From contig CAYXPQ010000001.1 of NCBI GenBank assembly GCA_964467225.1, forward strand, positions 6,812 to 70,811: a stretch of DNA of 64,000 bases, read 5' to 3'. The position numbers and the translations under genes are program-made. The notes under the pieces were generated by a model, which was given only the letters and a program-made list of their open reading frames with translations, did not search any database and was not told the DNA's origin. Below are positions 4,586 to 41,026 of this stretch, in pieces (the first letter of the stretch is position 1; each line of letters begins with the position of its first letter). This DNA is from an uncultured Candidatus Saccharibacteria bacterium. GTDB lineage: Bacteria > Patescibacteriota > Minisyncoccia > Phycocordibacterales > PALSA-1337.

Positions 4586-7126
4586 ATGTCTAGAAAAAAG
4601 CGATTTTTTAACACGTTTGCGTGGAAATTGCTCAAACCTCTAATTACCCTGACAATTTCTGTGAGTCTAATAGCAACAAGTGTTGCTATCTTGTGGTTTT
4701 CAACATTACAAATACCTGATTTGAGTGCATTTGAAGCCAGAAAGGTTAGTCAGTCTACAAAAATATTTGATCGAACTGGAGAAATACTCCTATATGATAT
4801 ACATAATGACTCAAAAAGAACTGTAGTGGCTTTTGAGGATATTTCAAAGAATATTAAAAATGCTACTGTCGCTATCGAAGATGTAGAGTTCTATCAACAT
4901 ATTGGAATAAAACCAACAGCTATTATTAGAGCTGTTGTAGCCAACCTAACTCCCGGATCAGGATTAACTCAAGGAGGGTCAACAATTACTCAACAAGTTA
5001 TTAAAAATGCAGTCCTAACCAAAGACAAAACCATAACCAGAAAACTAAAAGAATGGATTTTGGCCATAAAAATAGAAAAGGTTTTGAGTAAAGATCAAAT
5101 TTTGAATACATACTTAAATGAGAGTCCATATGGTGGAAGTATTTATGGTGTAGAAGAGGCAAGTAAAACTTTTTTTGGTAAATCTTCAAAAGATGTAACT
5201 TTAGCAGAAGCTGCTTATCTTGGAGCAATACCACAAGCCCCTACCTTCTATTCTCCATATGGTCCAAACAAAGAAAGACTTGATGCCCGACAAAAATTAG
5301 TTCTTTCAAAAATGAAAGAGAATAATTTTATTACGGCCGATGAGTATAATGAGGCATTAAAAGAAAAAGTTAAATTCTTAGAAAAAAGCACAACTGGAAT
5401 ACGAGCTCCCCATTTTTCATTATTTGTAAAAGAACAATTAATAAACAAATACGGTGAAAGTGCTGTAGAAGAAGGTGGTTTGAAAGTTATCACAACATTG
5501 AACTATGATTATCAAGAAAAGGCAGAGAAAGTAATAAGTAACTTCGCCCCTACTCTTGCTTCATCATACAATGCAAGCAATACAGCAATGGTAGCTATTG
5601 ATCCCAAGACAGGAGATATTCTTGCCTTAGTTGGTTCAAGAAATTATTTTGATAAAGAAATTCAAGGAAATTTCAATATTGTCACCGCACATAGACAACC
5701 CGGATCAACTTTCAAACCTTTCGTATATGCTACTGCTTTTATGAAAGGTTATACACCTGAAACCGTTCTTTTTGATGTAAAAACTGAATTCTCTACACAA
5801 TGTACTGTTGAAGGAAAATTAAAAGATGAGAATGATAAGGTAAACAAATGTTATTCTCCAGAAAATTATGACATGCTATATGAAGGTCCCATAACAATAA
5901 GAAAGGCTTTAGCTAGATCTAGAAACATCCCAGCTGTTAAAGCTTTATACTTGTCAGGGGTGAAAGATTCTATAGAAACTGCTGAGGCTATGGGAATAAC
6001 TAGTCTCAAAGATCCCAATAGATATGGATTAACATTAGTACTTGGAGGTGGTGAAGTTTCCCTTCTCGAACTGACAAGTGCTTATGGAGTATTTGCAAAT
6101 GACGGAATTAGAAATCCATATAGATCAATACTAAGGATTGAAGATTCGAAAGGAAATGTTGTGGAAGATTTTAAAACTAATCCAGTTCAAGCAATACCAT
6201 CACAACCAGCAAGACAAATAAATGATATTCTTTCAGATCCCAAAGTCATGACTGATAGCTTAAAACCTATTGTAAGCAATCTTAATAGACAAGTGGCGGT
6301 AAAAACAGGAACAACCAATGACTATCGAGATGTATGGATTGAAGGATATACTCCAAATATTGTAGTTGGGGCTTGGGCAGGCAAAAATGATAATACACCA
6401 ATGGACAGAAAAGTCGCAGGACTTATCATTACTCCTGTTTGGGGAGCTTTCATGACAGAAATAAACAAATCATTAGAAAAAGAAACATTTAAAAACCCTG
6501 AGCCAGATACACAAGATATTAAACCTATATTAAGAGGAATATGGAAAGGTGGTGTCACTTATAAAATAGATGGTATTTCAAAAAAACTTGCAACTGATCT
6601 GACACCGCAAGAGTTACAACAAGAGATTATTTTACCTAGTGTACATAGTATTTTACACTGGGTAGACAAATCAAATCCAAACGGTGAAATTCCAAAGGAT
6701 CCAAAACAAGATTCACAATATGAATATTGGGAATATGGTGTGCGAAAATGGTTTGATGAATGGGTAATTAACAATCCTGGCTTTACAGAAACCACAAATA
6801 TAGGAATTCCAACAGAAACAGATGATGTACATACATTGGAAAATTCACCAAAAATAGTTATAACTTCTCCAAAAAACGGAGATGTGGTGTCCTCAAGATC
6901 AAAAGTGAATGTCCAAATAAGTTATAGTGGCAAATACCCAATCAAAAAATCTGAGTTATATATAAACAATAAATACATTTCAACCAGCGAAAGAATTCCT
7001 AATCTATTAACTTTCATACCTCAAGATATTGGTATCACGCAAGACAAAATTATAATAAAAGTTGTTACTTTTGATGCTGTATTGAATAGAGTTGAAGCAA
7101 CAATAGATATAAACGTGTCTAATTAA
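4586..7126 (+). CDS. Penicillin-binding protein 1A family (bifunctional glycosyltransferase/transpeptidase)
   Basis: N-terminal TM. GT51 motifs (EDxxFYxHxG, TITQQV). Transpeptidase STFKP and KTGTT motifs. Long C-terminal extension. Confidence 0.9.
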   Translation: MSRKKRFFNTFAWKLLKPLITLTISVSLIATSVAILWFSTLQIPDLSAFEARKVSQSTKIFDRTGEILLYDIHNDSKRTVVAFEDISKNIKNATVAIEDVEFYQHIGIKPTAIIRAVVANLTPGSGLTQGGSTITQQVIKNAVLTKDKTITRKLKEWILAIKIEKVLSKDQILNTYLNESPYGGSIYGVEEASKTFFGKSSKDVTLAEAAYLGAIPQAPTFYSPYGPNKERLDARQKLVLSKMKENNFITADEYNEALKEKVKFLEKSTTGIRAPHFSLFVKEQLINKYGESAVEEGGLKVITTLNYDYQEKAEKVISNFAPTLASSYNASNTAMVAIDPKTGDILALVGSRNYFDKEIQGNFNIVTAHRQPGSTFKPFVYATAFMKGYTPETVLFDVKTEFSTQCTVEGKLKDENDKVNKCYSPENYDMLYEGPITIRKALARSRNIPAVKALYLSGVKDSIETAEAMGITSLKDPNRYGLTLVLGGGEVSLLELTSAYGVFANDGIRNPYRSILRIEDSKGNVVEDFKTNPVQAIPSQPARQINDILSDPKVMTDSLKPIVSNLNRQVAVKTGTTNDYRDVWIEGYTPNIVVGAWAGKNDNTPMDRKVAGLIITPVWGAFMTEINKSLEKETFKNPEPDTQDIKPILRGIWKGGVTYKIDGISKKLATDLTPQELQQEIILPSVHSILHWVDKSNPNGEIPKDPKQDSQYEYWEYGVRKWFDEWVINNPGFTETTNIGIPTETDDVHTLENSPKIVITSPKNGDVVSSRSKVNVQISYSGKYPIKKSELYINNKYISTSERIPNLLTFIPQDIGITQDKIIIKVVTFDAVLNRVEATIDINVSN

Positions 7127-30486: not shown

Positions 30487-32583
30487 TTACTTTTTCTTTA
30501 TGAAATTTGGATCAAGTTGTTTGATTGAAAGATTGATCCTTTTCTTATCATCTACCTCCTTTATAATAACTGGGACAATCATTCCCTCTTTTATATAATC
30601 AGTAATCTTCTCAATTCTAAATGATGCAATCTCTGATACATGCACCAGGCCTTCAGTATTACCTGCAATTTTTACAAATACTCCAAAATCCATAACTTTT
30701 GTAACTTCACCTTCGAATTTCTCGCCAACCTTGTATTCTCTGGTCATATTGAATATCACATCTCTAGCTTTTTTGGCTGTGCCATTTTTGCCTGTAATAA
30801 ATACAGTTCCATCATCTTCAATAGTTATGTCTTCTACAGCAGTTTTTTCTTTTATTTCTTTGATTGTCTTGCCTCCAGTGCCAATTATTAAGCCAATCTG
30901 ATCTTGCTTTATAGTTAAGGTAAGTATTTCAGGTGCATTTGGAGAAATATCAGCTCTTGGTTTTGATATTTCCTTTTCAATTAAATCTAATATCTGCATT
31001 CTGGCATTCTTTGCTTTTTCAAATGCTTCTTCTAAGATTTTTAATGGAATTCCATTTACTTTTACGTCCATTTGTATAGCGGTTATACCCTGTCTTGTAC
31101 CTGCTACCTTGAAATCCATATCTCCATGATGATCTTCAGGACCCTGAATATCTGTTAGAACTTTGTATTGTTTCTCGTTTCTCATCATTAAGCCAGAAGC
31201 AATACCTGCTACTGGAGATTTAATAGGTACTCCTGCATCCATAAGGGCTAGAGTTGATCCACATACTGAACCCATAGAAGTAGATCCATTAGATGAGAAA
31301 GCTTCCGATACTATTCTTATTGTGTAAGGGAATATTTCTTTTGCAGGGATTATTGGTAACAAAGCTTTCTCAGCAAGTGCTCCATGACCTATCATTCTTC
31401 TATTTGTTCCTCCAACTTTACCCGTTTCTCCTGTTGAGAATGGTGGGAAATTATAATGATGCATAAATCTTTTATTTTCTGATTGTTCCATACCGTCTAA
31501 TACTTGTGCATCTCCAGGGCCACCTAGTGTCAAAGCAGAGAGAACATGAGTTGCTCCCCTATAGAATATTCCAGTTCCATGTATCATAGGTGAGATTCCT
31601 CCTGCCTTAACAAAAAGCTCTCTTATTTCATCCATTCCCCTTCCATCTGCTCTTCGGTTATTATTTATTGCTTCGTTGTGAAGTATTTCGTTTATTGTTT
31701 CATCCAATAATTCTATTGCCAAACTTTTATTACCATCAGGAATTTCTTTTGAAAATTTATCCATCCAAATTTCCGCTATCTCAGATAATTTCTCTTTATT
31801 TGAATTATTAAAAATATAATCAGGTAGAATTGGAAGTATTTCCTTATCAAATAATTCCTTTGTACCAGGAGTAATTGTGGGTTTATCAACTTTTCTTTTC
31901 TCTTTACCTATTTCTTTTATAATATTCTTTTGCCAGTTTTGTATTTTTTCTATTTCTTCACTTGCTTTTAATAATGCTTGGTTAATTACACTCTCACTTA
32001 CTTCATTTCCTCCAACTTCAATCATATTTATTAATCTATCTTTACCACAAGCTACTAGGTCAAATGAAATACCAACCTCATCTCTTGTTTTGTAATTGGG
32101 ATTTACATGGAAATTCTCATTTTTTGCAATTCTCACCGCAGATACTGGACCATTCCATGGAATATCTGAGGTACCTAATGCCAATGACGCAGCAATTACA
32201 GAAATAACATCAGGATCATCTTCATCTATAGAAAGAACGGTTAGAATAACTTGAATTTCATTCCTAATATGATGATCAAATAGAGGTCGTATTGTTCTAT
32301 CCACTATTCTTCCAGAAAGAATCGCTTCATCGCTCGGTCTGCCCTCTCTTCTGATGAATCTACTACCTAGAATTTTGCCTGATGCATAGAATCTCTCCTC
32401 ATATTCAACTGTTAAAGGGAAAAAGTCTATGTCTTTCTGTGTTTTACCCATCACTGCTGTTGCTAGTACAACTGTATTGCCGTACCTGACCATTACTGAA
32501 CCGTGTGCTTGTTCTGCCAAATCATTAAATTCTGCTGTCAGAGTCTTACCGCCGACTTCAAGGGTAAATTGTTTTGATTTCAT
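30487..32583 (-). CDS. pnp: Polyribonucleotide nucleotidyltransferase (PNPase)
   Basis: Two RNase PH domains followed by KH and S1 domains. 698 aa. Confidence 0.95.
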   Translation of the reverse strand: MKSKQFTLEVGGKTLTAEFNDLAEQAHGSVMVRYGNTVVLATAVMGKTQKDIDFFPLTVEYEERFYASGKILGSRFIRREGRPSDEAILSGRIVDRTIRPLFDHHIRNEIQVILTVLSIDEDDPDVISVIAASLALGTSDIPWNGPVSAVRIAKNENFHVNPNYKTRDEVGISFDLVACGKDRLINMIEVGGNEVSESVINQALLKASEEIEKIQNWQKNIIKEIGKEKRKVDKPTITPGTKELFDKEILPILPDYIFNNSNKEKLSEIAEIWMDKFSKEIPDGNKSLAIELLDETINEILHNEAINNNRRADGRGMDEIRELFVKAGGISPMIHGTGIFYRGATHVLSALTLGGPGDAQVLDGMEQSENKRFMHHYNFPPFSTGETGKVGGTNRRMIGHGALAEKALLPIIPAKEIFPYTIRIVSEAFSSNGSTSMGSVCGSTLALMDAGVPIKSPVAGIASGLMMRNEKQYKVLTDIQGPEDHHGDMDFKVAGTRQGITAIQMDVKVNGIPLKILEEAFEKAKNARMQILDLIEKEISKPRADISPNAPEILTLTIKQDQIGLIIGTGGKTIKEIKEKTAVEDITIEDDGTVFITGKNGTAKKARDVIFNMTREYKVGEKFEGEVTKVMDFGVFVKIAGNTEGLVHVSEIASFRIEKITDYIKEGMIVPVIIKEVDDKKRINLSIKQLDPNFIKKK

Positions 32584-32681
32584 AGTGGAAATAATAACAT
32601 TTTGATTTGAGGTTTACTATTTGTTGACAAAAAGGATATAAAAGGCAATATAGAATAAGACTTTGCCAGAATTAACTGGTA

Positions 32682-33131
32682 ATGCAAAACAAAGGATTGT
32701 TTGTGAAAATTAAGGTGAATATCTTTGGTTGTGATGATCACTTCAATAATTTGAGTGAGCGGAATCGTCACATATTTCGCACGGCAATTGTTGATAAATT
32801 TGTAGAACAGGCAAGGCAACGTAATCTTAAAATACCTGAGTATGATTCGGATCATGATTTGGCTGTGTATCAACTCGGTTTACCAATTTTTCGTCTTTAT
32901 TTTGCAGATGTTATTCTGCGTATTGAGGATGGAGAACAGGTGCCAGATATAGAAAATCTTTATTCTCTATCAACTGCGATTGGTGAACTTTGGGATGAAT
33001 TTGTCAGATCCTTCATTGATACTGGAGGATTTGTGGGGCTCAGATTGATATGTAAGGACAGACAATTTCGTTGGAGCTTTGAGGGGAGAGTCGTACCAGA
33101 AGAAAAGCATACCCACACTATCAATCCTTAA
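32682..33131 (+). CDS. Hypothetical protein (no recognisable domain), slightly GC-elevated
   Basis: 149-aa ORF followed 19 nt downstream by a strong terminator. Confidence 0.5.
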   Translation: MQNKGLFVKIKVNIFGCDDHFNNLSERNRHIFRTAIVDKFVEQARQRNLKIPEYDSDHDLAVYQLGLPIFRLYFADVILRIEDGEQVPDIENLYSLSTAIGELWDEFVRSFIDTGGFVGLRLICKDRQFRWSFEGRVVPEEKHTHTINP

Positions 33132-33148
33132 TGATGTGTGTGAGGTCA

Positions 33149-33181
33149 CAAAAGCCAGCGGTTCGTATACTCGCTGGCTTT
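33149..33181. terminator. Rho-independent terminator (aaaagccagcg-loop-cgctggctttt)
   Basis: 7-bp GC stem flanked by A- and T-tracts. A TTGACA / TGATAAT promoter-like pair follows at ~33215-33247. Confidence 0.7.
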
Positions 33182-33253
33182 TCTCTATTGTATATCTATG
33201 GATAATACTGTTGATAATTGACAGTAAACTATCAACTATGATAATATTACCCC

Positions 33254-34231
33254 ATGGTAACCAGCACATATCATGATATTTATGAATACATTAATAAAAA
33301 TGGACAAGCTTCAATTGTTGAGCTTTTTAATCATTTTAAAATATCTAGGCAGGCAATTTTTAGGCATATTAATAGACTACAAAAGGAGGATCTAATTTAT
33401 AAAATTGGTAAATCACCAAGGGTGTTTTATTTACCTAAAAAACAATCAAAAATAGCAAATACAGGCATTATATCAGAGGATAAGAAAGAAATTATCAATG
33501 AAAATTACCTTATTATTACTCCAGACGGGAGAAGACTAGAAGGAGTTGAAGGGTTCGAATATTGGTGTGATAAACATAATTTACCTATAGAAAAGACTGC
33601 AAATGAATATGTTGATACATTAAAAAAGTATAATAAATATAAAAATGAAGGACTAATTAATGCCACCTCAAAAATTAAAGATAGTTTTGAAGAAATTGGT
33701 CTAGATGCCTTGTATTATAAGGATTTCTATAGCATTGAGAGATTTGGAAAGACCAAACTTGGACTGATTCTCCTCTATGCTAAGCAAAGCCAAGATAGAA
33801 ATCTAATAAAAGAGATTGAGAACATTATAAGACCTTCCATTGTTGATATTATTAATAATAATGATATTGATGCTATTGGGTTCATTCCTCCAACAGTAAA
33901 ACGCGAAGTACAACTTATGAGGGAACTTGAAAGATCACTTAGTATATCTTTACCGATAATAAATTTGGTAAAAATTAAAGGCGATATAGCTATTCCACAA
34001 AAGACCTTGAATAAAATTGAAGATAGAATAGAAAATGCTAGAAAATCTATTATTCTTGATGATAAGAAAGTATATAATAATATTCTTTTGATTGATGATG
34101 CTGTAGGTTCTGGTGCCACTCTAAATGAAACTGCAATTCAAATCAAGAATAGACAACTCTGCAAAGGTAAAATAATTGGATTAGCTATTACAGGTAGCTT
34201 TAAAGGATTTGATGTGATAAGTGAGGTGTAA
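33254..34231 (+). CDS. Winged-helix DNA-binding domain fused to type I phosphoribosyltransferase domain (PurR/ComF-like)
   Basis: N-terminal HTH (IVELFNHFKISRQAIFRHINRL). C-terminal PRPP-binding motif ILLIDDAVGSGATLNE. Confidence 0.65.
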   Translation: MVTSTYHDIYEYINKNGQASIVELFNHFKISRQAIFRHINRLQKEDLIYKIGKSPRVFYLPKKQSKIANTGIISEDKKEIINENYLIITPDGRRLEGVEGFEYWCDKHNLPIEKTANEYVDTLKKYNKYKNEGLINATSKIKDSFEEIGLDALYYKDFYSIERFGKTKLGLILLYAKQSQDRNLIKEIENIIRPSIVDIINNNDIDAIGFIPPTVKREVQLMRELERSLSISLPIINLVKIKGDIAIPQKTLNKIEDRIENARKSIILDDKKVYNNILLIDDAVGSGATLNETAIQIKNRQLCKGKIIGLAITGSFKGFDVISEV

Positions 34232-34232
34232 T

Positions 34233-34850
34233 CTATTCTTGTCCCGATAAATCTGCGATCTCATCTGCTACAGTTCCCAAAGTAGCATCTTTCGGTCCCC
34301 TTTTCTTAAAACTTGCTCTGAAATTTGATTTACCTTTAGCATGGCCTCCAATTAAATATTTCTTAACATCCTCATCAAGATCAAAGAAATCATCAACAGC
34401 CTCACGTAATTTAACTGAAGTAGACTTACCAAATGAAACAACTTCTACTTGGCAACCCTCATTTGTTTGTAAATATTCTACCAACGGTACAAAGTCTCCA
34501 TCCCCTGTTACAAGAATAACAGCATCAAGCTTGGGTGCCATTTTGACCGCATCAATAGCCATTCCAACATCCCAATCTGCCTTTTTAGCACCACTTCCGA
34601 ATATTTGAAGATCTTTTGTTTTTGTTTCTATTCCCATTTTTGTCAAAGCTTCAAAAAATGCCTTCTCATCTCCCGCTTCAGTGGTTATAACATAAGCTAT
34701 GGCTCTAATAAGCGATCTATCGCCTACTACATCTTTTACTATTTGGCCAAAATTAACTTTTGAATGGTATAGATTCTTAGCACTATGGTAGATGTTTTGA
34801 GTATCTATAAAAACTCCAACTCTCTGTTCTCTGTGTTTTATTACTGACAT
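34233..34850 (-). CDS. NYN domain (LabA/DUF88-like) protein
   Basis: VGVFIDTQNIY...ILVTGDGDFVPLV PIN-like acidic residues. Confidence 0.75.
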   Translation of the reverse strand: MSVIKHREQRVGVFIDTQNIYHSAKNLYHSKVNFGQIVKDVVGDRSLIRAIAYVITTEAGDEKAFFEALTKMGIETKTKDLQIFGSGAKKADWDVGMAIDAVKMAPKLDAVILVTGDGDFVPLVEYLQTNEGCQVEVVSFGKSTSVKLREAVDDFFDLDEDVKKYLIGGHAKGKSNFRASFKKRGPKDATLGTVADEIADLSGQE

Positions 34851-34935
34851 ATAAAAATATTAAAATTATAAAAACTTATAAAATGCAATTTGCTTATTAA
34901 AATCAATACAGATAGATTATATCATTAAAATCACA

Positions 34936-34953
34936 AACCGCCTTTTGGCGGTT
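34936..34953. terminator. Terminator hairpin aaccgcc-tttt-ggcggtt downstream of rpsO
   Basis: 7-bp stem located 10 nt after the rpsO stop. Confidence 0.55.
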
Positions 34954-34962
34954 CATAATGTC

Positions 34963-35232
34963 TTATTTTGCCTTAAGGTCTAGCTTCTTAGCGATACTTG
35001 CATGTCGCTTAGGGTGCTTTTTCTTTAGATAGTTCATGTGAGACTGTCTATCAGCAACCATAGCTAGCAAACCTCGTCTTGAGTGATTATCTTTCTTGTG
35101 TTTCTTCAAATGACTAGCTAATTCTTCGATTCTCTTCGTTAATATTGAAATTTGAACCTCTGGAGAACCAGTGTCCTTGTCGTGAATTGCTGATGATTTA
35201 ATGATATTTGTCTTCTGTCGTGTTGTTAACAT
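34963..35232 (-). CDS. rpsO: 30S ribosomal protein S15
   Basis: 89-aa typical S15 sequence. Confidence 0.93.
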   Translation of the reverse strand: MLTTRQKTNIIKSSAIHDKDTGSPEVQISILTKRIEELASHLKKHKKDNHSRRGLLAMVADRQSHMNYLKKKHPKRHASIAKKLDLKAK

Positions 35233-35261
35233 TGCTTGATTATCGTAGCATAAATAACTTT

Positions 35262-35700
35262 AAAGCGCAAGGGGTTGTTGACTAGAAAGAAGAAAACCCC
35301 AGACAATACATCACGTCTGGGGTTATACTGCGACCCACCTTCGTCTTGTGACTTGGTGGCGCCGAGGTCGTTCAGTTTTGGCTAGTGTTCTTGTTTTCGA
35401 AATGCTTCGGCGGGCTGTTCATGGGTGCCTTTCCCTTTTGGATTCACGGAATTGCATTCTTTTTTGGTCTCTCAAGGGATTGCGCTTACCCACACTACGT
35501 GGGGTGCATCTTCTTCACGATGACTCCTTTCTTTGTCGATTTCCCTTCTCTGGCGTGAGGCCGGGGCCGGGTGATCAGGAATTATTTTTTCCGACGCTGA
35601 CACCGACAGGGGGCGGTCCGTTGTTCATGGCTCCTTTTGTTGAGCTTTTAGCTCAGGCGATTATCATGCGTAGGAAGTGATCTACTGTGTTATTCACCTT
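35262..35700 (-). ncRNA. Candidate structured RNA gene in GC-rich island (tmRNA/ssrA-like 3' end); identity unresolved
   Basis: About 50% GC in a ~32% GC context. No credible ORF (the 110-aa plus-strand ORF is Arg/Trp-rich noise). Minus strand reads ...GGCGCCACCA at 35354-35363. An 8-bp hairpin (35296-35323) plus U-tract follows. Adjacent to the tyrosine recombinase gene. Confidence 0.4.
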
Positions 35701-35802
35701 GGTGAGTCACAGTCCATCAAACCTACATCTGCACATGAGTATAGCATATACAGATTTTTTGTCAAGTACTTTAAATTTTACATAAAAGCTATACTTTATA
35801 GC

Positions 35803-36741
35803 ATGTCGCACAATCTCAAAGATTTAAAAACTGATTTCCTACAATATACCGAGATAGAAAAGGGTCGAAGTCTCAATACTGTTCGTAATTATGATCAGTA
35901 TTTAAGCCGTTTTTTAGACTATACGAAGATAAAAGATCCTAAGGATATTACTGATAATAAAGTCCGAGATTTCCGTATTTGGCTCAATAGACAAGAGGCA
36001 AAAAAGGAGAAAGGAATGGCTCCTACAACACTCAAAAAGCGAACTCAAAATTACTATTTGATTGCACTTAGAGCTTTCCTCAAATATCTGGCTAGACAAG
36101 GCATAAATTCCCTCGCACCGGATAGGATTGAGCTCGCAAAGGTTCCAGAAAGGTCGCTGGACTTGATTACTATTGAAGAATTGGAGCGATTATTGAAAGC
36201 TCCTGATACTACAACCCTACGAGGATTGAGAGATAAGGCGATTTTGGAGTTACTTTTCTCTACTGGCCTTCGTATTTCCGAATTATGCTCTCTTCCTCGT
36301 GATATAAATTTAAAATTAGATGAAATGTCGGTCAGAGGTAAAGGAGAAAAAGTCAGAGTTGTATTTATTTCTGATGATGCTAAAACAGCTGTTAAAAATT
36401 ATTTAGACAAGAGAGATGATATGGACGATGCCCTATTTGTTCAAATACTAGGCAAAGGTAATGAAAAACTGGCTCAAAAGAGAGATTCATTAAGAATAAC
36501 TCCTCGTTCGGTAGAGAGAATAATCAAACAATACGCCATAAAATGCGGAATATCAAAAAAAGTTACCCCTCATGTGATAAGACACAGTTTTGCAACTGAT
36601 TTATTGAGAAATGGTGCTGATCTTCGCTCGGTTCAGATGTTGCTAGGTCATGCAAATATCAATACCACCCAGATATATACACATGTTACTGACAGTGAAT
36701 TAAAGAAAATCCATAAGAAATTTCATAGGAAAAGTGAATAA
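35803..36741 (+). CDS. Tyrosine site-specific recombinase, XerC/XerD family
   Basis: C-terminal catalytic RHSFATDLL...LLGHANINTTQIYTHV (R-H-R-Y). Start reset to MSHNLKDLK. Confidence 0.85.
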   Translation: MSHNLKDLKTDFLQYTEIEKGRSLNTVRNYDQYLSRFLDYTKIKDPKDITDNKVRDFRIWLNRQEAKKEKGMAPTTLKKRTQNYYLIALRAFLKYLARQGINSLAPDRIELAKVPERSLDLITIEELERLLKAPDTTTLRGLRDKAILELLFSTGLRISELCSLPRDINLKLDEMSVRGKGEKVRVVFISDDAKTAVKNYLDKRDDMDDALFVQILGKGNEKLAQKRDSLRITPRSVERIIKQYAIKCGISKKVTPHVIRHSFATDLLRNGADLRSVQMLLGHANINTTQIYTHVTDSELKKIHKKFHRKSE

Positions 36742-36768: not shown

Positions 36769-37557
36769 ATGAGAATAATTTGTTGGAATGTAAATGGTAT
36801 TCGTGCAAATATCAAAAAAGGCGGTTTTGATTGGATTTTACAACAATCTCCGGATTTTTTCTGTTTACAGGAGACCAAGGCACATCCTGAACAATTAGAC
36901 GACGGAACTAGAAATCCACTAGGATATTACTCATATTTTGACCATTCTAAGCTAAAAAAGGGTTATAGTGGGGTTGCAATTTATACAAAGATTAAGCCAA
37001 CCAAGGTAGATTACGCACTTGGAGTGAAGGAATTGGATCAAGAAGGTAGATTTCTAGCCCTATTTTATGCTGATGAAAGCATTGTGGGTAGTAAATTTGT
37101 ATTAATTACATGTTACTTCCCTAATGGGGGCGGAGGACCAGCACGATTGGCGTATAAATTAGAATTTTATGAAGAATTTTTGAAATATATTAATAAACAA
37201 AAAAAAGCAGGATATGAAATAATATTTTGTGGTGACATTAATACAGCTCACAATGAGATAGATTTGGCACGTCCAAAAGAAAATGAAAAGAACACTGGTT
37301 TCCTTCCAGAAGAAAGATCGTGGATAGATAAAGTTATTAACAATGGTTATTTAGATATTTATAGAAAAATTAATCCTGATAAAAAGGATCAATACACATG
37401 GTGGGATATGAAAACTTTTGCACGAGAAAGAAACGTCGGATGGAGAATTGATTATTTCTTCATAAGTCCAAATTTGGAAAGCAAGATCAAAAAAGCTAAT
37501 ATTCTCAACACTGTTTATGGTTCTGACCACTGTCCTATAGAATTAATTTTAAAATAA
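36769..37557 (+). CDS. xth: Exodeoxyribonuclease III
   Basis: MRIICWNVNGIRA...LQETK endonuclease/exonuclease/phosphatase (EEP) motif. Confidence 0.92.
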   Translation: MRIICWNVNGIRANIKKGGFDWILQQSPDFFCLQETKAHPEQLDDGTRNPLGYYSYFDHSKLKKGYSGVAIYTKIKPTKVDYALGVKELDQEGRFLALFYADESIVGSKFVLITCYFPNGGGGPARLAYKLEFYEEFLKYINKQKKAGYEIIFCGDINTAHNEIDLARPKENEKNTGFLPEERSWIDKVINNGYLDIYRKINPDKKDQYTWWDMKTFARERNVGWRIDYFFISPNLESKIKKANILNTVYGSDHCPIELILK

Positions 37558-38074
37558 ATTATATTGTCTTTTATAAAAGAAAAGTTATCCACAGATTTTA
37601 TTTGCAATGTCCTTTACATGTCTTTTATGGTTGCTATAATAATGCACAGATAAGTTGAGTTATTAACCAAGGATTAACTTGACAATGTTCTTTCAAAAGT
37701 AAGGGGTAGTATTGTTATCATTTTGAAATTCTTTTCAGAGAGATGGCGACCCTTCTTAGGTTTAGCTGAGGCATTGCATTTTTTCGCATTTTTTTAAGTT
37801 CCTCGTTGGAACACTCATTTGTAGGAAAATTTATGCAACCCCTCCCTATTACTTGGGTTGATGGTCAGTTGTCGCGGATCTTTGATCCCTTCTGGATCAT
37901 GTTGGTCCCTCTGTATAAGCCAAGAATTTCCACAACCGCAGACTTTGTTCGGTTCTCTCATTTTCTAACCTGAGACCCGTCCATTTGGATGCGGTTGATT
38001 TGTATTTAAATATTAATATGGCTCAATAGAGCCATATAATATATGTTTCATGTGAAATAATGACACAATGTTAA

Positions 38075-39637: not shown

Positions 39638-39709
39638 GCGCCCGTGGTGAAATGGATATCATACCGGTCTTCGGAACCGTTGTTGGGGGTTCGAGTCCCT
39701 CCGGGCGCA
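39638..39709 (+). tRNA. tRNA-Arg (anticodon TCG)
   Basis: Cloverleaf with 7-bp acceptor gcgcccg/cgggcgc. Anticodon loop cttcgga. T-loop ttcgagt. CCA not encoded. Confidence 0.8.
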
Positions 39710-39768
39710 CAAAATTAGGGTGTTTTGATTTGGTAAAAAATTAAAACTAATATATAATGACTCAAATT

Positions 39769-39839
39769 GCGGGTATGGTTTAGTGGTAGAATGCGTCCTT
39801 GCCAAGGACGAGGCGGGAGTTCGATTCTCCCTACCCGCA
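39769..39839 (+). tRNA. tRNA-Gly (anticodon GCC)
   Basis: Acceptor gcgggta/tacccgc. Anticodon stem cgtcc/ggacg with loop ttgccaa. T-loop ttcgatt. Confidence 0.85.
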
Positions 39840-39909
39840 CAGAAATCTTAAAGTACAGTCTTTTTATAAGAGTCATTTGTCCACTATTATTCACAAATAC
39901 CCTTAAAAC

Positions 39910-39930
39910 TGTGGATAACTCTGTGGATTA
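39910..39930. promoter_or_regulatory. Tandem DnaA boxes TGTGGATAA / TGTGGATTA upstream of yraN
   Basis: Perfect box at 39910-39918 and a one-mismatch copy at 39922-39930. Confidence 0.45.
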
Positions 39931-40010
39931 TGTTTATTAGACATAAATAATATGGCTTATAATCGTGTCTTTTGTCTTTTTTAATAGTGTTAATTAATTT
40001 ATGAATAATC

Positions 40011-40379
40011 ATGAATAATAGGGAAAAAGGTGATATAGGTGAAGGTATTGCATGTAACTATTTAAAAAATAGGGGATATCTGATACAAAATAGAAATTAT
40101 CGAGAGAAATATGGTGAAATTGATATTATCGCTGTAAAAGATAATATTCTTCATTTTATTGAGGTAAAATCAGTCTATATAGACAAGAGTCATGATAAAT
40201 ATAGGCCAGAGGAGAATGTTCACGATCTCAAACAGAGAAAATTAAGAAGGATTATTCAAGTATATATTAATAGGAACAATCTATCCAATTCAGAATTTAG
40301 ATTTCATGTTATAACAGTAAAAATAGATAATTTTAACAACAAATGTTATATCAAAATGTTAGAAAACATTATTCTGTAG
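40011..40379 (+). CDS. yraN: YraN family (UPF0102) endonuclease
   Basis: GDIGEGIACNYL...GEIDIIA...IHFIEVKS matches the YraN consensus. Confidence 0.85.
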   Translation: MNNREKGDIGEGIACNYLKNRGYLIQNRNYREKYGEIDIIAVKDNILHFIEVKSVYIDKSHDKYRPEENVHDLKQRKLRRIIQVYINRNNLSNSEFRFHVITVKIDNFNNKCYIKMLENIIL

Positions 40380-40415
40380 AGTTTTTTTATATGCTGTGTT
40401 AGTATGATGGAATAT

Positions 40416-40488
40416 CGGAGCGTGGTGTAACGGCTAACATGCTTCTTTTGGGAAGAAGTGACTCCGGGTTCGAATCCCGGCGCTCCGA
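40416..40488 (+). tRNA. tRNA-Pro (anticodon TGG)
   Basis: Acceptor cggagcg/cgctccg. Anticodon stem cttct/agaag with loop tttggga. T-arm ccggg-ttcgaat-cccgg. Confidence 0.85.
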
Positions 40489-40493
40489 CAAGT

Positions 40494-40916
40494 ATGAAGA
40501 AAATATTAAATTTTTTCGACAAATTTGAAGATCGTGTAAGAGGTAATCTAAGTAGGTATCCTATTTTATATACAATAATTGGAAGTATAGCTATAGTTTT
40601 GTTTTGGAGAGGGGTGTGGCATACAGCTGATATGTTACAAGAACAGGGTGGAATCTTAGGATTTATATTCTATGAGCCAGTAAACATGATTTTGGTTGTT
40701 ATTGTGCTTCTGTCTACTGGTCTTTTTGTATCATATTTTATTGGAGATACAATTCTTATTTCAGGTCTTAAACAACAAAAGAAGACAACAGAGAAAACAG
40801 AGAAGGAGATAAAGGATGAAGAGGGAAGACTAGATGAAATAAGGGATTCTATTAAAGAATTGAAGAGTGAAGTTGAAGAAATAATAGAAGTAATAGAAAA
40901 AGTGGAAAAAAAATAG
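40494..40916 (+). CDS. Two-TM membrane protein with charged coiled-coil tail
   Basis: Start reset to MKKILNFF after the tRNA-Pro. 140 aa. Confidence 0.55.
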   Translation: MKKILNFFDKFEDRVRGNLSRYPILYTIIGSIAIVLFWRGVWHTADMLQEQGGILGFIFYEPVNMILVVIVLLSTGLFVSYFIGDTILISGLKQQKKTTEKTEKEIKDEEGRLDEIRDSIKELKSEVEEIIEVIEKVEKK

Positions 40917-40950
40917 AATTCTTGCTAGTATAGATTTTGTTGAAATATAT

Positions 40951-41021
40951 GCGGGATTAGTTTAGTGGTAAAACTACAGTTTTCCAAACTGTTGTCGGGA
41001 GTTCGATTCCCCCATCCCGCA
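40951..41021 (+). tRNA. tRNA-Gly (anticodon TCC)
   Basis: Acceptor gcgggat/atcccgc. Anticodon stem acagt/actgt with loop tttccaa. T-loop ttcgatt. Confidence 0.85.
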
Positions 41022-41026
41022 CAAAA

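Follow-up and report, generated by a model that had tools for sequence, protein, structure and literature searches.

The rpsO-pnp locus of an uncultured Candidatus Saccharibacteria bacterium: a lineage-typical predicted NYN nuclease gene and two separate genes at a variable junction

Introduction

Why do the genes for ribosomal protein S15 (rpsO) and polynucleotide phosphorylase (PNPase; pnp) stand apart in an uncultured Candidatus Saccharibacteria bacterium, and did the genes between them arrive together? The stretch analysed here (the window) comprises 64,000 nucleotides (nt), positions 6,812 to 70,811 of contig CAYXPQ010000001.1 in assembly GCA_964467225.1; it is AT-rich (GC content 0.33), and its nearest relatives are metagenome-assembled genomes of Paceibacteria/Parcubacteria, which belong to the candidate phyla radiation (CPR). 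In the window rpsO lies upstream of pnp, both on the minus strand, and the 2379 bp between them hold three open reading frames (ORFs): a gene for an NYN/LabA-like predicted nuclease, a gene for a winged helix-turn-helix (wHTH) protein with a phosphoribosyltransferase (PRTase) domain, and a small orphan ORF. An earlier sequence-only reading had counted the same three genes in a gap of about 2.4 kb, at coordinates that prove real, and had taken them for an accessory module inserted into a housekeeping operon. The wHTH-PRTase gene does lie on the opposite strand, as that reading had it, but so does the orphan ORF, while the NYN gene is co-directional with rpsO and pnp. We consider it likely that the locus is a lineage-typical rpsO-NYN-pnp operon for RNA metabolism, whose NYN|pnp junction is open to gene gain and loss and here holds two separate plus-strand units.

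The NYN gene is a native member of the operon

The operon consists of the following features.

30487-32583, minus strand: pnp, polynucleotide phosphorylase, 698 aa; Pfam RNase_PH (twice), RNase_PH_C, KH_1 and S1; 48-75% identical to 80 Paceibacteria homologues
34233-34850, minus strand: NYN/LabA-like (COG1432-type) predicted endoribonuclease, 205 aa; PF01936, E-value 7e-36
34930-34959, minus strand: stem-loop directly after rpsO, a terminator or attenuator; -17.3 kcal/mol, z -6.3
34963-35232, minus strand: rpsO, ribosomal protein S15, 89 aa; Ribosomal_S15 PF00312, E-value 1e-28

For comparison we took the 80 closest pnp loci, one genome per species, and mapped the proteins of the window onto them; 76 of these loci were informative in that they had enough upstream DNA, with pnp identities of 48-75%. 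In 71 of the 76, NYN immediately precedes pnp in the same orientation, and this arrangement persists to pnp identities as low as 48%; loci L015, L017, L033, L045 and L074 depart from it. In turn, rpsO immediately precedes NYN at every locus whose contig extends far enough to show it (68 loci). The wider conserved order is xth-xerC / rpsO-NYN-pnp-orf344-dksA. NYN abuts pnp in L008, the closest species-representative genome, and the stop of NYN overlaps the start of pnp, or precedes it by no more than 30 nt, in nine relatives (one artefactual value, from an extended ORF of 883 aa, was set aside).

The composition of each gene was scored against the window as GC content, GC content at third codon positions (GC3) and codon fit. 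The z-scores are below 1 for NYN and -1.1 for the GC content of the PRTase gene, both genes being within about one standard deviation (sd) of the mean. The small ORF is mildly raised (GC 0.383 versus a window mean of 0.334, z +1.3; GC3 z +1.5; codon fit z -1.5), so the slight GC elevation that the sequence-only reading had seen in it is real; nevertheless, with no score of the three genes above 1.5 in absolute value, none has the atypical composition of a genomic island, and all three look native. Presence at this site throughout the lineage together with native composition, which would speak against an insertion, holds for NYN, but not for the PRTase gene or the orphan ORF. Because of its co-directional placement in 71 of 76 loci, its native composition and its start/stop overlap with pnp in several genomes, NYN is a native operon member and not an insertion. 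The idea of accessory genes placed into a housekeeping operon therefore fails for NYN and applies, loosely, to the two mutually unrelated plus-strand genes.

The NYN protein matches its Pfam family over the full profile (positions 1-145 of 145; 124.4 bits against a cut-off of 24.2), which bears out the earlier assignment to NYN/LabA-like putative nucleases, and its closest solved structure is 2qip (VPA0982, an uncharacterised LabA-like protein; 8.6e-26). The acidic active-site positions D16, N19, D92, D94, D100, D117 and D119 are each kept in at least 95% of 66 orthologues, and the gene is thus predicted to encode a catalytically intact PIN-like nuclease. Bacterial NYN proteins of COG1432 have been listed as functionally unknown, and the neighbourhoods described for them are those of tRNA and rRNA maturation genes (PMC5499597). 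In the literature searched on NYN together with PNPase or rpsO in CPR bacteria, an rpsO-NYN-pnp operon was not described. The eukaryotic PF01936-family members MARF1 and DNE1 are endoribonucleases of mRNA decay. The most economical suggestion is that the NYN protein, as an endoribonuclease, may work alongside PNPase to degrade or process RNA.

Transcription across the gap

The remaining features of the gap, between pnp and NYN, are as follows (numbers beginning with L denote the compared loci).

32584-32702, no strand assigned: intergenic region from which pnp and the small ORF diverge; 97-98% identical to L088
32703-33131, plus strand: ORF142, probable extent of the small, fast-evolving protein; the mechanical call from ATG 32682 gives 149 aa
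33150-33182, no single strand: bidirectional intrinsic terminator hairpin, AAAAGCCAGCG...CGCTGGCTTTT, found by folding
33184-33189, plus strand: left TCTATT copy, a 6-bp direct repeat at the edge of an indel, from DNA alignment
33190-34231, plus strand: 1042-bp presence/absence block with the operator, the promoter and the wHTH-PRTase gene; exact breakpoints against L088, L089 and L090
33210-33236, plus strand: palindromic operator GTTGATAAT-TGACAGTAA-ACTATCAAC with a third half-site in the spacer, from motif comparison across loci
33254-34231, plus strand: wHTH protein with a ComF-like phosphoribosyltransferase domain, 325 aa; HTH_24 at aa 8-48, weak Pribosyltran match at aa 219-308
34232-34237, plus strand: right TCTATT copy, overlapping the NYN stop codon, from DNA alignment

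Direct adjacency of rpsO and pnp is not what the window has: the gap contains NYN, two opposite-strand genes and a bidirectional terminator. A promoter and terminator scan missed both real hairpins, which were instead folded directly. The hairpin at 33150-33182 reaches -20.7 kcal/mol on the plus strand (z -5.3) and -19.8 on the minus strand (z -5.5); since it folds equally well on both strands it is bidirectional, and the strong terminator that the sequence-only reading had given to the orphan ORF is confirmed. In the strains that lack the PRTase gene it directly abuts the NYN stop codon and hence serves both convergent genes there. At the PRTase/NYN junction of the window, where the two stop codons are 1 bp apart, no hairpin is found (z about 0), so that the convergent transcripts probably overlap. 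The terminator claimed after rpsO, at 34936-34953, is likewise a real hairpin; it spans 34930-34959 on the minus strand and is followed by UUUUAA, and hairpins of -10 kcal/mol or stronger follow rpsO in 22 of 68 relatives. Rfam searches returned nothing relevant, either over the whole window at gathering thresholds or over 32400-35900 at E-values up to 1, and gave no riboswitch and no S15 leader.

With two opposite-strand genes and a bidirectional terminator between NYN and pnp, read-through to pnp is unlikely. While the plus-strand genes are in place, pnp would be transcribed from a promoter of its own, located in 32584-32702 or within the 5' end of the small ORF.

The NYN|pnp junction varies between strains

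In 20 of 65 relatives the NYN-pnp gap exceeds 500 bp and contains unrelated genes. The translations of these, read by eye, resemble a HAD hydrolase, SppA, FabH, a phosphoribosyl pyrophosphate (PRPP) synthetase and Bro/KilA proteins, besides membrane proteins and orphans. Homologues of the window's two plus-strand genes are found at none of the 80 GTDB species-representative pnp loci. Near relatives for the comparison of this junction were found by exact-protein look-ups and have the following layouts.

Window and L091-L093: pnp, ORF, PRTase, NYN
L089 and L090 (ORF 95-96% identical): pnp, ORF, NYN; no PRTase
L088: two tandem diverged copies of the ORF and a duplicated 97-bp NYN 3' end; no PRTase
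L084: pnp, PRTase, NYN; no ORF
L082: a 161-aa ORF, with TrmB-like and Bro-N genes beside the PRTase gene
L174 and L175 (PRTase 85% identical): the same layout, with a 146-aa ORF just 35% identical to that of the window

NYN is present in 71 of 76 informative relatives, the PRTase block is absent from close strains, and the small ORF is partly so. As the PRTase gene and the small ORF each occur without the other (in L084, and in L089 and L090, respectively) and carry separate promoter and terminator signals, they are independent units. The claim that the three genes form one inserted unit falls on the same evidence, for they vary independently among close strains, and the two plus-strand genes do not make up a two-gene module either.

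Rearrangements are also seen at the junction itself. In L088 (7485-8146) the small ORF is duplicated together with 97 bp of the NYN 3' end, and L011 (7189-7299) has an extra fragment matching NYN residues 132-168; the two duplications suggest repeated illegitimate recombination at NYN|pnp. In L081 (4577-6000), whose flanking genes are 78-91% identical, PRTase, NYN and rpsO are present and a 430-aa ORF replaces pnp between orf344/dksA and PRTase, pnp having apparently been lost or moved.

History of the PRTase cassette

The identity of the PRTase to that of the window parallels that of the flanking genes, at 85% in L174 and L175, 78% in L081, 74% in L082 and L084, 65% in L085 and 56-59% in L086, L095 and L111, which argues for vertical inheritance. 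In L085, L086, L095 and L111 the gene is found between xth and cca, in the same syntenic block at a distance of about 3 kb, and in the closer relatives, a genus-level set, it lies at NYN|pnp. The xth|cca gap of the window (37558-38074) measures 517 bp and is non-coding; positions 37519-37794 are 71% identical to L081, and the gap contains no PRTase remnant or pseudogene, no operator and no Rfam family. As far as these comparisons go, the pattern fits a long vertical residence with one local relocation and repeated losses, and the PRTase gene behaves as a native but dispensable gene.

The last event can be read in two directions. The segment 33190-34231 (1042 bp) is missing exactly in L088-L090, whose flanks are 94-99% identical at the protein level, and TCTATT stands on both sides of it in the window. 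In the simplest reading, a deletion between the two TCTATT copies would have removed the cassette from the sister strains. Alternatively, the cassette may have been inserted or re-inserted recently into the lineage of the window at a TCTATT target: the 6-bp direct repeat flanks the block exactly, in the manner of a target-site duplication, all three nearest strains are without the block, and the cassette is self-contained and belongs to a PRTase family found in many different genomic contexts. However, the same tail-to-tail PRTase|NYN junction (1-18 bp) recurs in L174/L175, L081, L082 and L084 with a divergence that matches the flanks, there is no associated recombinase, and six base pairs may equally be the residue of a microhomology-mediated deletion. 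We regard recent insertion as the less probable direction, although it keeps an appreciable share of the probability.

The wHTH-PRTase has a predicted operator of its own

The PRTase family is widespread among CPR bacteria and comprises 4102 homologues, nearly all of about 325 aa and 55-60% identical over their full length; where a source is annotated, it is a group of Patescibacteria. Conservation is extreme in the C-terminal 240 residues, with an invariant PRPP loop, ILLIDDAVGSGATLNE, and C105 is the sole invariant cysteine. In the AlphaFold 2 (AF2) model (predicted local distance difference test score, pLDDT, 85) the N-terminus forms a winged helix, with helix 32-44 as the predicted recognition helix.

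At 86 loci we looked up to 130 nt upstream of the start codon for the best 9-N9-9 palindrome and compared the result with 1720 shuffles. The consensus, GTTnnnAGT-N9-ACTnnnAAC, lies within about 40 nt of the PRTase start codon; it is a perfect 9/9 palindrome in 57 of the 86 loci and an 8/9 palindrome in 25 more, as against 9/9 in 5 of the 1720 shuffles. Upstream regions from seven contexts have GTTGAYAGTTGACAGTAAACTRTCAAC in common. The motif is also specific to the family, with 88 sites in 700 kb of gene-bearing loci (about one per locus) versus one in 1.16 Mb of controls. In the window the operator overlaps the predicted -35 element TTGACA (33218-33223), the -10 element GATAAT being at 33240-33245, and the predicted target DNA of the wHTH-PRTase is GTTGATAATTGACAGTAAACTATCAAC; no further site was found in the 64-kb window, 33210-33236 being the only good one. 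The spacer contains a third half-site, which speaks for an operator in the DNA over an RNA hairpin.

The central triplets of the operator change symmetrically between homologues (GAC/GTC, GAT/ATC, TAC/GTA, CCT/AGG and CAT/ATG). By mutual information with operator class, positions 36, 32 and 33 of the protein rank highest in the alignment, and all three fall on the predicted recognition helix. All 22 sequences of class CCT have R36 and R33; F36 (replaced by Y in 2 of 17 GAC sequences) with Q33 marks classes GAC and GAT, H36 predominates in class TAC, and class CAT combines F36 with R33. Such a position of the co-varying residues would be expected if the operator is read out directly. This co-variation of the central triplets with recognition-helix residues 32, 33 and 36 implies autoregulation, in which the predicted wHTH-PRTase would repress its own promoter. 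The protein may act as a dimeric autorepressor, PurR-like in architecture; with less confidence, PRPP or a nucleotide might modulate its DNA binding or its enzymatic activity.

Two loci carry additional operators. L141 (2745-5057) has two tandem wHTH-PRTase paralogues, the second just 42% identical to that of the window, and an extra operator of a different class (5348); in L168 (6085-6426) a second operator, of another class, precedes a 96-aa membrane-protein-like ORF. In both cases paralogues with orthogonal specificities, or small regulons, may be involved.

Relation to ComF, PurR and conflict-system phosphoribosyltransferases

Fold comparison of the AF2 model gave H. pylori ComFC (7p0h) as the best match (E-value 8e-5, 192 columns, root-mean-square deviation 3.6 A), followed by B. 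subtilis PurR (7rmw), which aligns across both domains (320 columns), PyrR, hypoxanthine phosphoribosyltransferases (HPRTs) and ShosT. Among PADLOC profiles, aa 105-313 match the C-terminus of PsyrT (207 of 689 positions) at 4.5e-14, ShosT at 1.4e-4 and the retron PRTase_III-A at 5e-5, and the homologues fall just below the threshold of Pfam PRTase-CE (26.9 bits against a cut-off of 27), for which a literature search returned no paper. Given the ComFC fold, the PurR match across both domains and the PsyrT profile match, the domain is best described as a putative ComF-clade PRTase in a PurR-like architecture. The winged helix with a C-terminal PRTase fold is that of PurR, but no PuR_N or PurR match appeared in Pfam, NCBIfam or the PDB sequence search. 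Likewise, the PRTase domain is of the PsyrT/ShosT toxin clade, while the helicase or pyrophosphatase domain and an adjacent antitoxin gene are missing (84 loci).

A profile-to-PDB search with the wHTH (aa 1-60, 33254-33430) ranked the Z-alpha domains of PKZ and ADAR1 first, with E-values of about 4e-4, and the wing motifs are similar (GKPPKVFY versus PPVW). The alignment positions that we take to be Z-alpha's Z-DNA-contacting Asn and Tyr are not conserved in the wHTH-PRTase family; a Z-DNA-binding identity was therefore rejected in favour of generic winged-helix similarity.

The ComF affinity raises the question whether the wHTH-PRTase is simply the ComFC of this lineage, that is, the competence protein for incoming single-stranded DNA, with a winged helix in place of the zinc finger. 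ComFC 7p0h is indeed the best match in structure, with the type I PRTase fold and an invariant PRPP-binding loop (ILLIDDAVGSGAT); in our own alignment reading against the ComF consensus, the ComF-like motif PQKTL..L.DR.ENA is followed by that loop, and one source names a PRTase homologue ComFC. However, the TIGR00201 comF match is weak (18.7 bits against a cut-off of 233.55), the N-terminal four-cysteine zinc finger is lacking, none of comFA, comEC or dprA is a neighbour in 84 loci, the gene is dispensable between near-identical strains, and an operator that co-varies with the recognition helix would indicate binding of double-stranded DNA at the gene's own promoter. A ComFC role is hence unlikely.

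The small ORF and the question of a two-gene system

The start of the small ORF is probably GTG 32703 and not ATG 32682, as judged from an AAAGGA Shine-Dalgarno-like motif upstream and from agreement with the starts of homologues, which gives a protein of 142 aa. Only the nearest relatives share the ORF, and its sequence changes very rapidly: a word-indexed search found three homologues and a search of 1.84 billion proteins 11 cluster representatives, with the conserved motifs ITLYGC (N-terminal), PIxRLYFADV (central) and LWDEFVRSFIDSGGFVGxRL (C-terminal). Against L088 the ends of the gene are 97-100% identical and the middle 290 nt (32709-32998) just 40-60%, a mosaic pattern that suggests allelic replacement or diversifying selection. 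One distant homologue sits in an unrelated context. No match was found in Pfam, NCBIfam, PADLOC or PHROGs, and the AF2 model from a three-sequence alignment was unusable (pLDDT 44), so a fold search was not made.

Fast evolution beside a toxin-clade PRTase could point to a toxin-antitoxin or anti-phage cassette of the PsyrTA/ShosTA type in a variable hotspot, with the PRTase as toxin and the small protein as antidote. The PADLOC matches to PsyrT, ShosT and retron PRTase_III-A, the proximity to PRTase-CE and the ShosT fold match agree with this, as do the strain-level presence/absence polymorphism, the rapid mosaic divergence of the small ORF and an operator specificity diversified as in self-contained selfish modules. 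Against it, each gene is found without the other, and clustering of 256 flanking ORFs from 84 loci revealed no recurrent PRTase neighbour; a strong terminator separates the two genes, as do a distinct promoter and operator; the PsyrT helicase and ShosT pyrophosphatase domains are absent; the PRTase looks vertically inherited, and no homologue was found on viral contigs; and the small ORF has a homologue in an unrelated context. We judge such a cassette improbable here. Least probable of all is the original proposal of a single horizontally acquired module of three genes inserted between rpsO and pnp, for although the 2.4-kb spacing, the mildly raised GC of the small ORF and the absence of PRTase and ORF from most relatives had spoken for it, NYN is at the site in 71 of 76 relatives, composition is within about 1.5 sd for all three genes, the genes vary independently among close strains, and the insert has no integrase, transposase or long terminal repeats (its sole repeat being the 6-bp direct repeat), the neighbouring xerC being itself syntenic in nearly all relatives.

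Neighbouring features

Between rpsO and the true start of xerC, at 35295-35735, lies a GC-rich (0.47-0.52 versus 0.33) non-coding block on the minus strand, with a strong promoter-like site at 35765-35738 and a terminator hairpin at 35324-35295; its fold z-score is only -1.4, and it has no match in Rfam or transfer-messenger RNA (tmRNA) searches. In the near-identical L088 and L090 the ends of the block are kept and the middle, of about 320-430 nt, is swapped for different, partly shared modules; the more distant L008 and L005 have just 9-60 bp at this position. The mechanical start of xerC (35677-36741), GTG 35677, falls inside the block, and homology to relatives begins at about residue 42, so that the real start is probably ATG near 35803. 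The plus-strand ORF 35348-35680 (GC3 z = +5) is spurious. A tRNA cluster (Arg-TCG, Gly-GCC, Pro-TGG and Gly-TCC) lies just past cca, at 39638-41022.

Discussion

The "split" of rpsO and pnp is the normal state in this large uncultured lineage, because a predicted nuclease joined the operon, and the functionally unknown bacterial LabA-like NYN proteins thereby gain a concrete, testable link to PNPase-dependent RNA decay. In addition, even tiny CPR genomes keep a plastic junction within a core operon, with gain and loss of genes at the level of strains. The wHTH-PRTase represents a large uncharacterised family (about 4100 clusters) with a clean operator code; it readily lends itself to gel-shift and ligand assays and might yield orthogonal repressor/operator pairs.

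A broader reading of both findings is speculative, and we would put it forward only tentatively. In it, the wHTH-PRTase would be an undescribed CPR-wide single-gene self-regulating element, an enzyme acting with PRPP on nucleotides or nucleic acids, with a private operator that insulates its expression and diversifies like those of selfish or defence modules, and rpsO-NYN-pnp would provide PNPase with an endonuclease partner specific to the lineage, in a minimal RNA-decay unit of CPR bacteria.

Several points weigh against the interpretation given here. The rpsO-NYN-pnp association rests on the 80 closest pnp loci and not on all of CPR, and every functional step is inferred. The co-variation between operator and protein is confounded by phylogeny, since the operator classes may simply be clades, and with one operator in 64 kb no wider regulon is seen. 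Conservation is higher in the PRTase domain than in the wHTH, which would fit an enzyme better than a pure ligand sensor; PsyrT as the best PADLOC match and the near-threshold PRTase-CE score would point to conflict-system PRTases; and the 1042-bp indel may be a loss or a regain, in either direction.

Comparison with known systems

The rpsO-NYN-pnp operon is a variant of the RNA-decay operons already known, and the solo wHTH-ComF-like PRTase is a variant of PurR-like or ComF-like proteins. With the rpsO-pnp operon of the E. coli type the locus has in common the gene order and strand, a strong stem-loop directly after rpsO, and the products S15 and PNPase. According to one account (PMC5029454), E. 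coli too has an opposite-strand element between the two genes, the small RNA SraG. The locus described here differs in the co-directional NYN gene that stands between rpsO and pnp throughout the lineage, and in the window also by two opposite-strand protein genes and a bidirectional terminator between NYN and pnp. The NYN protein itself resembles the LabA-like proteins (PF01936/COG1432; 2qip) in its full-length domain match and in its acidic active site, which is kept; its placement inside rpsO-pnp is not mentioned for these proteins in the literature searched.

The wHTH-PRTase resembles ComFC and ComF-like proteins, as well as PsyrT/RqlH, ShosT and retron III-A, in its best fold and best profile matches and, in our own alignment reading, in the motifs that flank the PRPP loop. 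Unlike these ComFC and conflict-system PRTases, it has no zinc finger, helicase, pyrophosphatase or partner gene, and instead combines a wHTH with a dedicated operator. B. subtilis PurR binds PRPP and ppGpp. Its likeness to the protein described here lies in the two-domain architecture and the intact PRPP loop; the predicted operator at the promoter of the wHTH-PRTase gene implies that the wHTH-PRTase may likewise be a repressor. The present protein differs from PurR in that its PRTase is of the ComF/PsyrT clade, it lacks PuR_N and it has an extra conserved middle region of about 140 residues; its operator is unrelated to that of PurR and varies in specificity between homologues.

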